NCBI RefSeq assembly: GCF_003334305.1
Contig: NZ_QOWS01000006.1
DNA from: Escherichia coli
Lineage (GTDB): Bacteria; Pseudomonadota; Gammaproteobacteria; Enterobacterales; Enterobacteriaceae
Length of the DNA stretch: 64,000 nt
Strand: one strand, 5' to 3'
Of the stretch, positions 8,626 through 58,341 are shown one piece after another; positions within the stretch are counted from its first letter, which is position 1, and every line of letters begins with the position of its first letter. A program made the position numbers and the translations under genes. A model generated the notes under the pieces. The model was not told the origin of the DNA. It saw nothing but the letters and a program-made list of their open reading frames with translations, and made no database searches.

Positions 8626-8713
8626 TCGCCCTATAAACGGGTAATTATACTGACACGGGCGAAGGGGAATTTCCTCTCCGCCCGTGCATTCATCTAGGGG
8701 CAATTTAAAAAAG

Positions 8714-9947: not shown

Positions 9948-10100
9948 TTACTCGGATTCGTAAGCCGTGAAAACAGCAACCTCCGTCTGGCCAGTTCGGA
10001 TGTGAACCTCACAGAGGTCTTTTCTCGTTACCAGCGCCGCCACTACGGCGGTGATACAGATGACGATCAGGGCGACAATCATCGCCTTATGCTGCTTCAT
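9948..10100 (-). CDS. hokC: Hok-family type I toxin HokC (Gef)
   Basis: 50-aa C-terminal portion of the 9948..10190 ORF: MKQHKAMIVALIVICITAVVAALVTRKDLCEVHIRTGQTEVAVFTAYESE, a small single-helix membrane peptide. Confidence 0.9.
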   Translation of the reverse strand: MKQHKAMIVALIVICITAVVAALVTRKDLCEVHIRTGQTEVAVFTAYESE

Positions 10101-10157
10101 TGCTCTCTTCTCCTTGACCTTACGGTCAGTAAGAGGCACTCTACATGTGTTCAGCAT
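9948..10157 (-). CDS. mokC: MokC, overlapping regulatory reading frame of hokC
   Basis: 69-aa frame MLNTCRV... that reads through hokC, as in hok/mok/sok loci. Confidence 0.7.
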   Translation of the reverse strand: MLNTCRVPLTDRKVKEKRAMKQHKAMIVALIVICITAVVAALVTRKDLCEVHIRTGQTEVAVFTAYESE

Positions 10158-10205
10158 ATAGGGGGCCTCGGGTTGATAGTAAAATATCACTCGGGGCTTT
10201 TCTCT
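10149..10205 (+). ncRNA. sokC: sokC antisense RNA (approximate position)
   Basis: Placed by analogy with hok/sok architecture, antisense to the mokC start region; boundaries are inferred, not read from the sequence. Confidence 0.35.
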
Positions 10206-10685
10206 ATCTGCCGTTCAGCTAATGCCTGAGACAGATAGCCTCAAGCACCCGCCGCTATTATATCGCTCTCTTTAACCCATTCTGTTTTATCGATTCTAAT
10301 CCTGAAGACGCCTCGCATTTTTGTGGCGTAATTTTTTAATGATTTAATTATTTAACTTTAATTTATCTCTTTATCGCAATTATTGACGACAAGCTGGATT
10401 ATTTTTGAAATATTGTCCTAACAAATAACGCCGACTGACAAGAAATTAATTATTACTTTTCCTAATTAATCCCTCAGAAATCCTGACCTTAAGCTATGAT
10501 TATCAGGGCTTAGGGTCACCCGTTAGCGCTTACAGCCGTCAAAAACTCATCTCACCGCTGATGGCGCAAATCCTTTAATTGCTCGTAAAAAACGAGTTAT
10601 TCCTACACTATAATCTGATTTTAACGATGATTTGTGCGGGGTAAAATAGTAAAAACGATCTATTCACCTGAAAGAGAAATAAAAA

Positions 10686-25661: not shown

Positions 25662-26065
25662 CCACAAAATATTTGTTATGGTGCAAAAATAACACATTTA
25701 ATTTATTGATTGTAAAGGGCTTTAATTTTTGGCCCTTTTATTTTTAGTGTTATGTTTTTAAATTGTCTATAAGTGCCAAAAATTACATGTTTTGTCTTCG
25801 GTTTTTGTTGTTTTAATGTAAATTTTGACCATTTGGTCCACTTTTCCCTACTCGCTTTTATTTCATGCAATCTTCTTGCTGCGCAAGCGTTTTCCAGAAC
25901 AGGTTATATGATCTTTTTGCCGCTTAATGCCTGTAAAACATGCATGAGCCACAAAATAATATAAAAAATCCCGCCATTAAGTTGACTTTTAGCGCCCATA
26001 TCTCCAGAATGCCGCCGTTTGCCAGAAATTCGTCGGTAAGCAGATTTGCATTGATTTACGTCATC

Positions 26066-26108
26066 ATTGTGAATTAATATGCAAATAAAGTGAGTGAATA
26101 TTCTCTGG
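26066..26108 (+). promoter_or_regulatory. carAB promoter P2 with tandem ArgR operators (ARG boxes)
   Basis: tgtgaattaatatgcaaa and agtgagtgaatattctct, each close to the ARG-box consensus tnTGAATwwwwATTCAnw, immediately upstream of carA. Confidence 0.55.
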
Positions 26109-35609: not shown

Positions 35610-35700
35610 ATGACTGCCGGATGCGGCGTAAACGCTTTATCCGGCCTACATTCGTGCTCCCGTAGGCCTGATAAGACGCATTAGCGTCGCATCAGGCAGC
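35610..35700. repeat. BIME made of two REP elements
   Basis: gccggatgcggcgtaaacgctttatccggcctaca followed by gtaggcctgataagacgcattagcgtcgcatcaggc, between caiB and caiA. Confidence 0.6.
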
Positions 35701-51222: not shown

Positions 51223-53577
51223 TCACAAAGTGTTTTGATACGGCAGAATGTTCGAACGCAGCATCTCTTGCGTACCCAGACCGTAGTTGGAGCTCAGGCC
51301 GCGAAGTTCGATGTTAAAGCCGATTGCGTTGTCATATACCGCATGTTGTTTATCGTTATCCCAACCGTTCAGCTTCCGCTCGTAACCGACGCGAATTGCA
51401 TAGCAGCAGGAGCTGTATTGCACACCTAACATAGAGTCGGCTTGCTTGTTCGCATTGGTGTCGTAGTAGTAGGCCCCAACAATGGACCAACGATCGGCAA
51501 TTGGCCAGCTGGCGACAGCACCTACCTGCGAAATACCATTCTTATATTGCTCAGCAGTGGAATAGTACTTAGGCAGCGTAGCCTGAATATATTCCGGGCT
51601 GGCGTAACGGTAATTCAGCTGTACCAGACGGTCTTCATCCCGACGGTATTCAATGCTGGAGTTACTGGTCGCTACGTTATCCAGACGTGTATCGTACTGA
51701 ATCCCGCCACGCAATCCCCAACGCTCGGAGATACGCCAGTAAGTATCGCCTGCCCACACCAGTGAGCCCGTTTTGTCGTCATTCTCCCATGTTATGTTGT
51801 CATCGCCAGTGCGAGACTCCGTGAAATAGTAGATTTGACCAACGGAAATATTAAAACGTTCAACGGCAGCATCATCATATATGCGAGATGTGACACCGGT
51901 CGTCACCTGGTTAGCGGAGGCAATACGGTCAAGACCGCCGTAAGTCCGGTCCCGGAACAGGCCAGAGTAGTCAGATTGCAGCAGAGATGAGTCGTAGTTA
52001 TAGATGTCGCTCTGATCGCGATACGGCACGTACAAATACTGCGCGCGCGGTTCCAGCGTTTGGGTATAACCCGGAGCCAGCATTTCCATATCGCGTTCAA
52101 AGACCATTTTGCCGTCAACTTTGAATTGCGGCATTACGCGGTTAACGGATTCGTCCAGCTTGGTCGTGTTTCTGGAGTTATACCAGTCAAGATTAGTTTG
52201 CTGATAATGGGTTGCCAGCAACTTCGCTTCGGTATTGATGCTGCCCCAGTTATTAGAGAGCGGCAAATTGATGGTCGGTTCCAGGTGAACACGGGTTGCT
52301 TCAGGCATGTCGTCTCTGGTGTTAACAAAGTGCACTGCCTGGCCGTAAATACGCGTATCAAACGGACCAACATCATTCTGGTAGTAATTAACGTCTAACT
52401 GCGGCTCTGCCGAGTAGCTACTGGTGTTCTGTTCGCTGAAAACCTGGAACTGCTTGGTTGAAACGGTGGCATTGAAGTTTTGCACCGCATAGCCAACGCT
52501 GAATTTTTGCGTTGCGTAGCCGTCAGTACTGGAACCGTACTTGTTATCGAAATCATTGAAGTAGCTAGGATCGCTGACCTTGGTGTAGTCGACGTTGAAA
52601 CGCCACACCTGATCCATGACCCCGGAGTGGTTCCAGTAGAATAACCAACGACGTGAACTGTCATCGTTCGGGTGTTCATCTTCATAGACTTTATCTGAAG
52701 GCAGATAGTCCAGTTCCATCAAGCCAGCGCCCGCCTGGGAGAGGTAGCGGAATTCGTTCTCCCACATGATGTTGCCACGACGATGCATATAATGCGGCGT
52801 GATGGTGGCATCCATATTTGGCGCGATGTTCCAGTAATATGGCAGGTAGAACTCAAAGTAGTTGGTGGTGGTGTACTTGGCGTTCGGGATCAAGAAACCA
52901 GAGCGACGTTTGTCACCCACCGGCAACTGCAAATAGGGGCTATAAAAGATCGGTACCGGACCCACCTTAAAGCGGGCGTTCCAGATCTCCGCAACTTGTT
53001 CTTCGCGGTCATGAATAATTTCGCTACCTACCACGCTCCAGGTGTCAGAACCCGGCAGACAGGAGGTAAAGCTACCGTTATCCAGAATGGTATAGCGGTT
53101 TTCGCCACGTTGTTTCATCAGGTCCGCTTTACCGCGACCCTGGCGACCCACCATCTGGTAATCACCTTCCCAGACGTTGGTATCTTTGGTGTTCAGATTC
53201 GCCCAGCCTTTCGGCCCTTTGAGGATCACCTGGTTATCGTCGTAATGGACATTACCGAGCGCATCAACGGTACGTACCGGCTCCGGTTGTCCTGGTGCCT
53301 CTTTTTGATGGAGCTGCACTTCGTCGGCCTGCAGACGGCTGTTACCCTGCATGATATCCACGCTGCCAGTAAACACGGCGTCATCCGGGTAGTCCCCTTT
53401 CGCGTGGTCAGCATTGATAGTCACGGGTAAGTCATTGGTATCGCCCTGTACCAGAGGACGGTCATAGCTTGGCACGCCCAACATGCACTGTGAGGCGAGG
53501 TCGGCTGCCAGTCCCTGTTGACTATAAAGGGCGGTGGCAATCATGGTGGCCAGGAGAGTGGGGATACGTTTTTTCAT
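51223..53577 (-). CDS. lptD: LPS-assembly outer membrane protein LptD (Imp/OstA)
   Basis: 784-aa ORF with signal peptide [24 protein letters not shown]. Confidence 0.97.
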
Positions 53578-53831
53578 ACGTTGATTTTATTGTTCCATCA
53601 TCGGTAACGTTGCGCGTGACAAACGGTCAGAGACTAACGTACTCGTCATCTCTACGCTAGTGTTAATCCTGTCCGAATAGCGTCAGTGGTGTTAGGCACG
53701 GCATTGAATGACAGGTATGATAATGCAAATTATAGGCGATGTCCCACAATTGACCGCAGCCGGAAAACGGTAAAAGCACCTTTATATTGTGGGAGATAGC
53801 CCTGATATCCGTGTGTCGATTTGGGGAATAT

Positions 53832-54647
53832 ATGCAGTATTGGGGAAAAATCATTGGCGTGGCCGTGGCCTTACTGATGGGCGGCGGCTTTTGGGGCGTA
53901 GTGTTAGGCCTGTTAATTGGCCATATGTTTGATAAAGCCCGTAGCCGTAAAATGGCGTGGTTCGCCAACCAGCGTGAGCGTCAGGCGCTGTTTTTTGCCA
54001 CCACTTTTGAAGTGATGGGGCATTTAACCAAATCCAAAGGTCGCGTCACGGAGGCTGATATTCATATCGCCAGCCAGTTGATGGACCGAATGAATCTTCA
54101 TGGCGCTTCCCGTACTGCGGCGCAAAATGCGTTCCGGGTGGGAAAATCAGACAATTACCCGCTGCGCGAAAAGATGCGCCAGTTTCGCAGTGTCTGCTTT
54201 GGTCGTTTTGACTTAATTCGTATGTTTCTGGAGATCCAGATTCAGGCGGCGTTTGCTGATGGTTCACTGCACCCGAATGAACGGGCGGTGCTGTATGTCA
54301 TTGCTGAAGAATTAGGGATCTCCCGCGCCCAGTTTGACCAGTTTTTGCGCATGATGCAGGGCGGTGCACAGTTTGGCGGCGGTTATCAGCAGCAAACTGG
54401 CGGTGGTAACTGGCAGCAAGCGCAGCGTGGCCCAACGCTGGAAGATGCCTGTAATGTGCTGGGCGTGAAGCCGACGGATGATGCGACCACCATCAAACGT
54501 GCCTACCGTAAGCTGATGAGTGAACACCATCCCGATAAGCTGGTGGCGAAAGGTTTGCCGCCTGAGATGATGGAGATGGCGAAGCAGAAAGCGCAGGAAA
54601 TTCAGCAGGCATATGAGCTGATAAAGCAGCAGAAAGGGTTTAAATAA
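53832..54647 (+). CDS. djlA: Co-chaperone DjlA (membrane-anchored J-domain protein)
   Basis: ORF 53787..54647; ATG at 53832 gives the 271-aa protein [20 protein letters not shown]-terminal J-domain HPD motif. Confidence 0.94.
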
Positions 54648-54656
54648 GTTTTAAAC

Positions 54657-54745
54657 TGTAGGCCTGATAAGACGCGGCCCGCGTCGCATCAGGCAATCGG
54701 CGCACAATTGCCGGATGCGGCGTGAACGCCTTATCCGCCTACCGA
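54657..54745. repeat. BIME made of two REP elements
   Basis: gtaggcctgataagacgcggcccgcgtcgcatcaggc and gccggatgcggcgtgaacgccttatccgcctac fill the djlA-rluA intergenic gap. Confidence 0.6.
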
Positions 54746-54763
54746 ACTGCGCCAGCGTGACGA

Positions 54764-55423
54764 TTAAAAATCCGCTGGCGCTTTAAACGTCATACTATTG
54801 CCATACGCCGGATGGGTAATCGTCAACATCTCTGCATGTAGCAACAAACGCGGTGCCATCGCTCTCGCTTCTGGTGATGCATAAAAACGATCGCCGAGAA
54901 TCGGATGCCCCAGCGCCAGCATATGCACACGCAATTGATGCGAACGCCCGGTAATCGGTTTTAACACCACTCTTGCCGTGTTATCCGCCGCATACTCCAC
55001 CACTTCATATTCCGTCTGCGCAGGTTTACCCGTTTCGTAACAGACTTTCTGTTTCGGGCGGTTTGGCCAGTCGCAAATCAGCGGCAGATCCACCAGACCT
55101 TCTGCGGGGGATGGATGCCCCCAGACGCGGGCCACATACTGCTTTTTCGGCTCGCGCTCGCGGAACTGGCGTTTTAACTCCCGCTCCGCGGCTTTGGTCA
55201 GCGCCACTACAATCACGCCGCTGGTAGCCATATCCAGACGATGCACCGATTCTGCCTGCGGATAATCACGCTGAATGCGCGTCATCACGCTGTCTTTGTG
55301 CTCTTCCAGACGACCCGGCACTGACAACAAACCGCTCGGCTTGTTGACCACCATAATATGGTCATCCTGATACAGGATAACCAACCAGGGTTCCTGCGGT
55401 GGATTGTAGTTTTCCATCCCCAT
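54764..55423 (-). CDS. rluA: 23S rRNA/tRNA pseudouridine synthase A
   Basis: ORF 54764..55480; ATG at 55423 gives the 219-aa protein MGMENYNPPQEPWLVILYQDD. Confidence 0.94.
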   Translation of the reverse strand: MGMENYNPPQEPWLVILYQDDHIMVVNKPSGLLSVPGRLEEHKDSVMTRIQRDYPQAESVHRLDMATSGVIVVALTKAAERELKRQFREREPKKQYVARVWGHPSPAEGLVDLPLICDWPNRPKQKVCYETGKPAQTEYEVVEYAADNTARVVLKPITGRSHQLRVHMLALGHPILGDRFYASPEARAMAPRLLLHAEMLTITHPAYGNSMTFKAPADF

Positions 55424-55434
55424 TTTCGGCTCCG

Positions 55435-58341
55435 TTACTGATGCGTTACAACGATCAAACGCAGGGCATCCAGACGCCAACCTGCCTGATCCAGGCTTTC
55501 CATTACCTGCTGACGGTTGCTCTCAATGGCGGTCAGTTCGTCGTCACGAATGTTCGGGTTCACTGCACGCAGAGCTTCCAGACGAGACAGCTCGGCAGAC
55601 AGTTTTTCGTCGGCTTCGTTACGCGCTGCATCAATCAATGCACGGGCAGATTTCTCGATCTGCGCTTCACCCAGTTGAAGGATAGCGTGAACATCCTGCT
55701 GCACGGCGTTAACCAGTTTGCTGCCGGTGTGACGGTTAACCGCGTTAAGCTGGCGGTTAAAGGTTTCAAACTCTACCTGCGCCGCCAGGTTGTTGCCGTT
55801 TTTATCCAGCAGCATACGTACCGGCGTCGGTGGCAGGAAGCGGTTGAGCTGCAACTGCTTCGGAGCCTGGGCTTCAACCACATAAATCAGTTCCACCAAC
55901 AGCGTACCTACCGGCAACGCTTTGTTTTTTAACAGTGAAATCGTGCTGCTACCGGTATCGCCAGAAAGAATCAGATCCAGACCGTTGCGGATCAGCGGAT
56001 GCTCCCAGGTAATAAACTGTGCATCTTCACGCGCCAGCGCCACTTCACGATCAAAGGTGATGGTGATGCCATCTTCCGACAGGCCAGGGAAGTCCGGCAC
56101 CAGCATATGATCGGACGGCGTCAGCACGATCATGTTGTCGCCGCGATCGTCCTGATTGATACCGATAATATCGAACAGGTTCATGGCGAAGGCGATCAGG
56201 TTGGTATCGTCATCCTGCTCTTCAATGCTTTCTGCCAGTGCCTGGGCTTTTTCGCCACCGTTGGAGTGGATTTCCAGCAGGCGGTCACGACCCTGTTCCA
56301 GCTGTGCTTTCAGCGCTTCATGTTGCTCGCGGCAGTTTTTGATCAGATCGTCAAAGCCTTCGGTTTGATCCGGTGAAGCCAGATAGTTAATCAGATCGTT
56401 GTATACGCTATCGTAAATAGTGCGTCCGGTCGGGCAGGTGTGCTCAAATGCATCCAGACCTTCGTGATACCAGCGCACCAGCACCGACTGAGCGGTTTTC
56501 TCCAGATAAGGCACATGGATCTGAATATCGTGCGCCTGGCCGATACGATCCAGACGACCAATACGCTGCTCCAGTAGATCCGGGTTGAATGGCAGGTCAA
56601 ACATCACCATGTGGCTGGCGAACTGGAAGTTACGTCCTTCAGAACCGATTTCTGAGCACAGCAGTACCTGTGCGCCGGTGTCTTCTTCGGCAAACCAGGC
56701 GGCAGCGCGGTCACGTTCGATAATCGACATACCTTCGTGGAACACCGCAGCGCGAATACCTTCACGTTCGCGCAGTACCTGCTCCAGTTGCAGCGCAGTG
56801 GCAGCTTTGGCGCAGATCACCAGCACTTTCTGAGAGCGATGGCTGGTCAGGTAGCCCATCAGCCACTCAACGCGCGGATCGAAGTTCCACCAGGTGGCGT
56901 TATCACCTTCAAATTCCTGATAAATACGCTCCGGGTAGAGCATATCGCGAGCACGATCTTCCGCACTTTTACGTGCGCCCATAATGCCGGAGACTTTAAT
57001 AGCCGTCTGATACTGCGTCGGTAGCGGCAGTTTAATGGTGTGCAGCTCGCGTTTCGGGAATCCTTTCACACCGTTACGCGTGTTACGGAACAGCACGCGG
57101 CTGGTGCCGTGGCGATCCATCAGCATCGAAACCAGCTCCTGACGGGCGCTCTGGGCATCTTCGCTGTCGCTGTTTGCTGCCTGCAACAGCGGCTCGATAT
57201 CCTGCTCGCCGATCATCTCGCCGAGCATGTTCAGTTCGTCATTGCTCAGTTTGTTACCTGCCAGCAGCATGGCAACGGCGTCCGCAACCGGACGATAATT
57301 TTTCTGCTCTTCAACGAACTGCGCAAAATCGTGGAAACGGTTCGGGTCCAGCAGACGCAGACGGGCGAAGTGGCTTTCCATCCCCAGCTGTTCCGGGGTC
57401 GCGGTCAGCAGCAGAACGCCCGGCACGTGCTCTGCCAGTTGTTCAATGGCCTGATATTCACGGCTTGGCGCATCTTCGCTCCACACCAGGTGATGCGCTT
57501 CATCGACCACCAGCAGGTCCCATTCGGCTTCACAGAGATGTTCCAGGCGCTGTTTGCTACGACGGGCAAAATCCAGCGAGCAAATCACCAGCTGTTCGGT
57601 GTCAAACGGGTTGTAAGCATCGTGCTGAGCTTCGGCATAACGCTCATCATCAAATAGCGCAAAGCGCAGGTTGAAACGGCGCAGCATTTCTACCAGCCAC
57701 TGATGCTGTAAGGTTTCCGGGACGATAATTAGCACACGTTCAGCAGCGCCAGAGAGCAGTTGCTGATGCAGGATCATCCCGGCTTCAATGGTTTTCCCTA
57801 AACCCACTTCGTCAGCCAGCAGGACGCGCGGCGCGTGGCGGCGACCAACATCATGAGCGATGTTGAGCTGATGCGGAATCAGGCTGGTACGCTGACCGCG
57901 CAGGCCGCTGTACGGCATACGGAACTGTTCGCTGGAATACTTACGCGCGCGATAACGCAGCGCAAAGCGGTCCATACGGTCAATCTGCCCGGCAAACAGA
58001 CGGTCCTGCGGTTTGCTGAACACCAGTTTGCTATCAAGGAAAACTTCACGCAGGGCTACGCCGGACTCTTCAGTATCCAGGCGAGTACCGATATAGGTCA
58101 GCAAGCCATTTTCTTCTTTTACTTCTTCGACTTGCATCTGCCAGCCGTCATGGCTGGTAATAGTATCACCAGGGTTGAACATCACGCGGGTCACGGGGGA
58201 ATCACTGCGTGCGTACAGACGGTTTTCACCAGTAGATGGGAAAAGTAAAGTGACAGTTCGCGCATCCACCGCGACAACGGTTCCAAGTCCCAATTCGCTT
58301 TCTGTATCGCTGATCCAGCGTTGACCAAGTGTAAAAGGCAT
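55435..58341 (-). CDS. rapA: RNA polymerase-associated SWI2/SNF2 ATPase RapA (HepA)
   Basis: 968-aa ORF with helicase motifs DEVGLGKT and VVDEAHH. Confidence 0.97.

Follow-up and report, generated by a model that had tools for sequence, protein, structure and literature searches.

REP stem-loops at the 3' ends of mRNAs impede 3'-to-5' exonucleases, and RNase R and PNPase act on mRNAs that contain REPs, which need these enzymes for their decay (reviewed in PMC12320835). According to the work of Liang, Rudd and Deutscher (Mol Cell 2015), as it is summarized in PMC12306157, translation of an upstream gene is lowered only by REPs that lie less than 16 nt from its stop codon; one count given in that summary places 446 of 4072 E. 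coli REPs within this distance. The insertion sequence IS621 targets the sequence ATCAGGCCTAC inside REPs (PMC11208160). The protein EspY1 is the Sakai effector ECs0061 (PMC4269881).

The spacer between djlA and rluA described here can be compared with each of these systems. The window, by which we mean the whole 64-kb stretch of DNA that was analysed, carries at this site two imperfect palindromes of 34-37 nt, opposed in orientation, extragenic and with GTAG/CTAC heads, as in a Y/Z2 BIME. Unlike the BIMEs that form tandem arrays, it is a single Z2-Y unit, and its Y copy has a 1-nt deletion. It resembles the naRNA4 family (Rfam RF02564, a REP325-derived nucleoid-associated RNA) in that the minus strand matches the model at full length and above the gathering score. 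However, it is a different locus with a single unit, and the match reflects shared REP sequence and hairpins. Like the REPs that lower translation, as those are characterized in PMC12306157 (Liang, Rudd and Deutscher, 2015), the spacer has a REP less than 16 nt past a stop codon. Finally, the yabP-yabQ islet of K-12 and the espY1 (ECs0061) islet of O157:H7 share their chromosomal site with the spacer of the window. The islet differs from the spacer in its length (1.43-1.51 kb), its 44% G+C, its effector gene, its transposase fragment and its own terminators, and the 116 bp between djlA and rluA in the window hold no espY1-homologous sequence. The features of the locus are as follows.

53832-54647, plus strand: coding sequence of djlA (co-chaperone DjlA, 271 aa), taken from the list of open reading frames and the same in the annotation of an identical RefSeq record.
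54645-54647, plus strand: djlA stop codon TAA, from the list of open reading frames and the sequence.
54648-54763, between convergent genes: djlA-rluA intergenic spacer of 116 bp and 60% G+C, the short form of a dimorphic site.
54658-54694, minus strand: Z2-type REP with its GTAG head facing djlA, identical to the Z2 reference at 35 of 37 positions and recovered as an inverted repeat.
54658-54668, minus strand: perfect natural IS621 target ATCAGGCCTAC at the head of the Z2 REP, empty in the window.
54662-54677 and 54679-54694: stem of the Z2 REP, a near-perfect 16-nt inverted repeat, from the inverted-repeat search.
54695-54708: 14-nt linker AATCGGCGCACAAT between the facing REP tails, read from the sequence.
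54709-54742, plus strand: Y-type REP with its CTAC head facing rluA, identical to the Y reference at 31 of 35 positions and matching the core motif.
54749-54781, minus strand: perfect 9-bp hairpin GCGCCAGCG / CGCTGGCGC, with arms at 54749-54757 and 54773-54781.
54764-54766, minus strand: rluA stop codon, from the list of open reading frames and the sequence.
54764-55423, minus strand: coding sequence of rluA (pseudouridine synthase RluA, 219 aa), from the list of open reading frames, the RefSeq annotation of the identical record and the translation.

The initial annotation had given the distance between djlA and rluA as 116 bp and had described it as filled by two REP palindromes. Both statements are correct. 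The positions of the two stop codons leave exactly 54648-54763 between the genes, and the inverted repeats, the core motif, the Z2/Y typing and the match to RF02564 all identify the palindromes as REPs. The best-matching RefSeq record, from strain 2013C-3033 (100% identity over 1116 bp), is annotated with djlA and rluA at the same 116-bp spacing as in the window. Its DjlA protein, WP_001200579.1, is also the DjlA of K-12 in the RefSeq annotation.

We typed the elements against the Z2 and Y references, which are among the three REP sequences printed in Durrant et al. 2024 (PMC11208160). Both are imperfect palindromes of about 35 nt that match Y or Z2 and begin with a GTAG/CTAC head, and both lie wholly outside genes, between the two stop codons. 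The inverted-repeat search places the second palindrome around 54710-54735. The two types alternate in opposite orientation, with Z2 on the minus strand and Y on the plus strand, tails facing and heads outward. Outward heads and facing tails over a 14-nt linker are the layout of one Y/Z2 BIME unit. The core motif GCCKGATGCGRCG is perfect in both elements, at 54682-54694 (minus) and 54710-54722 (plus). The 64-kb window contains 13 copies of it, where chance would give 0.73, and none of 100 shuffled sequences reached this number. A query containing the spacer matches 19 places in the median E. coli genome. The spacer element thus truly belongs to the REPs of E. coli. The Y copy lacks one G at 54736-54742, where it reads CCGCCTAC in place of CCGGCCTAC, and its outer stem is weakened; the form without the 1-nt deletion, CCGGCCTAC, is present in the published Y reference, in strain S88 and in all three Escherichia outgroups described below. 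Elsewhere in the window, a second REP pair lies at 35616-35697, with cores at 35616-35628 (plus) and 35685-35697 (minus).

The same interval is very different in K-12. The initial annotation had put about 1.5 kb with yabP and yabQ at this position and had proposed a presence/absence difference, and direct comparison with the K-12 locus upholds both points: in place of the 116-bp spacing, MG1655 has a gap of 1507 bp, in which the annotation places yabP, yabQ and a transposase DNA-binding fragment that is both frameshifted and truncated. The gap in O157:H7 is 1464 bp and holds an intact gene annotated as 'T3SS effector EspY1' together with the same transposase fragment, there assigned to the IS4/Tn5 family. 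Residues 1-192 of YabP are 87.5% identical to residues 1-192 of EspY1, and residues 1-43 of YabQ align to EspY1 residues 207-249. These alignments indicate that a frameshift has split one espY1 gene into two halves, yabP and yabQ. The frame break lies inside 15-bp tandem repeats whose copy number varies among strains. The name EspY1 is that of the RefSeq annotation and of PMC4269881, and the identity of the transposase fragment is that of the RefSeq pseudogene annotation. A profile search with EspY1 returned no NCBIfam family and, in Pfam, only a weak pentapeptide-repeat match (E = 0.014). The K-12 segment has 44.3% G+C; the window as a whole has 51.5% and the REP spacer 60%. The long form also has conventional hairpins at both of its ends: a canonical intrinsic terminator for rluA about 50 nt past the stop codon (locus L001, 2951-2930) and, about 40 nt downstream of the djlA stop codon, a hairpin followed by UUCUUU.

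Among the espY1 alleles of the long form (L001, 2330-2600; L003; L005), the 15-bp repeat encodes a pentapeptide-like run that differs in copy number. Between K-12, O157 and strain eco-241, the identity of the EspY1 proteins is only 75-88%, although that of the flanking genes is about 99%. A 40-nt hairpin of 17 pairs (L001, 2594-2633) follows immediately on the yabQ/espY1 stop codon; it adjoins the IS4/Tn5-family fragment and may be a terminator or an IS end.

The junctions between the two forms are sharp. BLAST of 53500-55500 against the K-12 and O157 loci returned two blocks, 53500-54645 and 54764-55500, at 99.5-99.8% identity, and no similarity between these blocks in either locus. Identity ends within the djlA stop codon, which is TAA in the window and TGA in K-12 and O157, and the sequences agree again from the first base of the rluA stop codon onward. 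When the 116-bp and 1507-bp spacers were compared with a word size of 7, just chance matches of 7-8 nt appeared, and neither the REP core nor the GTAGGCC head occurs in the long form. Because no sequence is shared between the two stops, the exchange is best described as a stop-to-stop replacement and not as an insertion into a retained spacer. The espY1 islet (1.43-1.51 kb, low in G+C) has thus replaced the entire spacer in the K-12/O157 state. We also considered a simple insertion of the islet into the REP spacer; the K-12 long form contains no leftover homology or REP motif, which rules this out.

Both forms are abundant in the species. We counted the genomes with one place covering at least 80% of a query among 5426 complete E. 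coli genomes. By this measure, the short form with the REP spacer (queried as 500 bp + spacer + 500 bp) is present in 3183 genomes and the K-12-like long form (300 bp + 1507 bp + 300 bp) in 2083; another 16 are unclassified. In a further 144, including SE11, the short form carries IS621 in its first REP, as detected with the end of djlA joined to the end of IS621. Most E. coli thus have the REP spacer, and the dimorphism is common, not a peculiarity of one strain. The common spans of the short form correspond to spacers of 115-117 bp, and B2 strains such as S88 (locus L006, 1001-1149) and ST131 have 149 bp, with a further REP nested inside the Z2 element.

IS621 occupies the exact target at the Z2 head in these 144 genomes (for example EC_J_9 and SE11; locus L004, 2710-4104), and the core dinucleotide AG (= CT) borders the inserted element at either end. 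The window holds just one more perfect IS621 target, at 35662-35672 within the second REP pair.

Which form a strain carries does not follow the similarity of its flanks. The djlA and rluA flanks of the window are 99.6-99.7% identical to those of K-12, which has the long form, versus 97.6-98.0% identical to those of S88, which has the short form. Records of BL21, ATCC 8739 and HS-derived strains, which belong to the same phylogroup as K-12, have the short form. The two forms have therefore been exchanged among lineages, by recombination that used the conserved flanks. Mutual identity is 94-96% for long-form alleles and 98-99% for their flanks, and this greater divergence indicates that the islet is either old or fast-evolving. 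A separate observation concerns NZ_CP026085.1, a 4.83-Mb record labelled 'strain DH5alpha', which has the short REP form; among the matches listed, the MG1655 records and another DH5a record (4.58 Mb) have the long form. The label or the strain identity of NZ_CP026085.1 looks doubtful.

For polarity, we used one scan of species-representative genomes with DjlA, which returned 80 loci, and measured the djlA-rluA gap at each. The gap is 116 bp in E. whittamii, 117 bp in the cryptic-clade Escherichia sp. MOD1-EC7003, 169 bp in E. albertii and 149 bp in the GTDB representative of E. coli. Beyond Escherichia, it is 53-193 bp in Citrobacter, 75 and 58 bp in Salmonella enterica subsp. arizonae and diarizonae, respectively, and about 28-50 bp in Enterobacter, Lelliottia, Leclercia and Kosakonia, with Enterobacter at about 30 bp. 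None of the 80 loci could be recognised as coming from E. fergusonii, E. marmotae or E. ruysiae. The spacers of E. whittamii, E. albertii and MOD1-EC7003 align to that of the window over its full length, through the leader, Z2 REP, linker, Y REP and trailer, and the linker AATCGGCGCACAAT is kept in these outgroups. In E. albertii the spacer contains a nested REP, as in the B2 strains, and a partial extra copy. Judging from these nested REPs in B2 and E. albertii, the short form turns over by REP insertion. The spacers of Citrobacter and Salmonella have REP-like palindromes of their own, and that of Enterobacter has a simple bidirectional hairpin.

The cargo found at the junction next to djlA varies from lineage to lineage. 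No rluA lies within 3.5 kb of djlA in Klebsiella and related genera, and in Klebsiella pneumoniae djlA is followed instead by a DpiB/DpiA-like pair of sensor kinase and response regulator (locus L064, 4361-6707). In a Pluralibacter MAG, a 377-aa lectin-like ORF lies between djlA and rluA (locus L057, 4575-5708).

How, then, did the two forms arise? An orthologous REP pair in three non-coli Escherichia implies that the REP spacer predates E. coli and that the espY1 islet is derived. We therefore consider it very probable, on the basis of these three genomes and of the more distant genera, that the window retains the ancestral Escherichia arrangement, a single BIME-like Z2-linker-Y unit with the 3'-end roles proposed below, and that K-12 is derived. 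The opposite history, in which the long yabP/yabQ (espY1) form is ancestral and the lineage of the window deleted it and later gained REPs in the scar, is extremely unlikely. It draws some support from the junctions, since spacers without shared homology make the direction unreadable from the junctions alone, and from the age of the long-form alleles suggested by their 94-96% mutual identity against 98-99% in the flanks. Against it, three further species of Escherichia have this REP pair at this position, and their copies can be aligned with that of the window base by base. Every other genus examined with djlA beside rluA has a short spacer, unrelated insertions aside, and the 44% G+C, IS fragment and T3SS effector gene of the long form are hallmarks of acquired DNA. 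That the short spacer is merely an assembly collapse or a private deletion of one strain is vanishingly improbable: nothing speaks for it beyond the difference from K-12, and the same contiguous arrangement is present in 3183 complete, independently assembled genomes, many of them 99.5-100% identical.

Other alternatives concern what the REP pair does. As RNA, the spacer folds at -55.7 kcal/mol on the plus strand (z = -4.0) and at -71.5 kcal/mol on the minus strand (z = -6.3); the Z2 hairpin alone folds at -22.2 kcal/mol (z = -3.9) and the Y hairpin at -16.6 kcal/mol. The RF02564 model aligns over its positions 1-77 of 77 with 54661-54740 of the minus strand, and the 75.8 bits of this match exceed the gathering score of 59.5. 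On this evidence, the pair could be not a passive 3' structure but a gene for an naRNA4-type nucleoid-associated noncoding RNA, which works with HU to compact the chromosome. We regard this as very unlikely. RF02564 was built from a REP/BIME locus, REP325, and any Y + Z2 pair is expected to score well on such a REP/BIME-derived family; the plus strand over the REP spacer scores 45.6 bits as well. A consensus scan of 54300-55100 found no promoter-like site, neither in the spacer nor adjoining it. The djlA-rluA site has one REP unit and no tandem array, and the copy there is wholly lost in about 38% of E. coli genomes. We have thus set aside the naRNA4 match as a real sRNA gene and regard it as a by-product of REP similarity. 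Another possibility is that the Z2 REP mainly attenuates translation of DjlA, by ribosome stalling at the stop codon, so that amounts of DjlA differ between short-form and long-form strains. This is unlikely as the main explanation. In its favour, the GTAG head of the Z2 REP begins 10 nt and its stem 14 nt past the djlA stop codon, inside the range of less than 16 nt given in PMC12306157; E. whittamii, E. albertii and MOD1-EC7003 have kept these distances; and the first hairpin in K-12 is about 40 nt downstream. On the other hand, REPs this close to a stop codon are common by the count in the same source (446 of 4072), and such positions are perhaps simply where REPs are tolerated. Attenuation of DjlA is compatible with the explanation we prefer, an ancestral REP spacer that serves as a 3' structure, and differs from it in emphasis.

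Three other RNA families score above their Rfam gathering scores in the window: the sok antitoxin RNA at 10098-10250 (minus, 122 bits), tpke11 at 8636-8713 (plus, 69.6 bits) and the ES003 sRNA at 26017-26069 (plus, 87.4 bits).

A consensus scan found no intrinsic terminator (hairpin plus U run) on either strand of 54648-54763, and reading of the sequence found no T runs after the REP stems. Because the spacer is without a hairpin-plus-U-run terminator, the REP stem-loops may form the structured 3' ends of both convergent transcripts, djlA and rluA, and we consider 3' stem-loops for both mRNAs to be the likely role of the spacer. The stems would stop 3'-to-5' exonucleases and keep the two transcription units apart. 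The Z2 stem may also lower translation of DjlA, because it begins 14 nt after the djlA stop codon, at 54662, with the head of the REP starting at 54658. Both the protection of 3' ends and the effect on DjlA translation are roles that we infer from published REP work. In strains with the long form, these roles would pass to the conventional hairpins brought by the islet. With a REP at this conserved distance from its stop codon, djlA is a candidate for REP-mediated translational control in short-form strains and not in K-12. The 1-nt deletion in the Y REP, which weakens its outer stem, counts against a role for the REPs. REPs spread as semi-selfish repeats, and their presence alone is no proof of a function for the host.

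The 9-bp hairpin at the end of rluA is specific to the short form, since its spacer arm is absent from K-12. The rluA stop codon is inside its loop, with one arm in the spacer and the other within rluA, and the hairpin is part of the minus-strand minimum-energy fold. It could be a chance match.

The observation in the window and its first reading were right, yet the finding is an ordinary one and the biology is already known. Every component is of a known kind: REP/BIME, the yabP/yabQ pseudogene pair, espY1 and IS621. The present analysis adds the polarity of the change, the complete replacement of the spacer, the population frequencies of the two forms and the identity of the K-12 genes yabP and yabQ. 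Only one reading may be mildly new, namely that strains differ, through this swap, in how djlA and rluA are controlled at their 3' ends. About 60% of E. coli, and other Escherichia, have a REP stem 14 nt past the end of djlA and a hairpin loop around the stop codon of rluA; strains of the K-12 and O157 kind instead have conventional terminators, 40-50 nt beyond the ends of the two genes. It is doubtful, however, that the dimorphism amounts to a swap of the 3' control region of two housekeeping genes, beyond the presence or absence of cargo.

The significance of the locus beyond careful annotation is slight. K-12 has the unusual state at this site and should not be the default when presence and absence are scored. 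Within one 116-bp spacer, three known processes can be followed: islet replacement, REP nesting (in B2 and E. albertii) and RNA-guided insertion of IS621. Should the REP attenuate DjlA, gain of the islet would incidentally create heritable differences among strains in the dosage of this protein, and so possibly in Rcs-dependent capsule induction. The djlA-rluA site may also provide a natural test case for the effects of REPs on the expression of adjacent genes.
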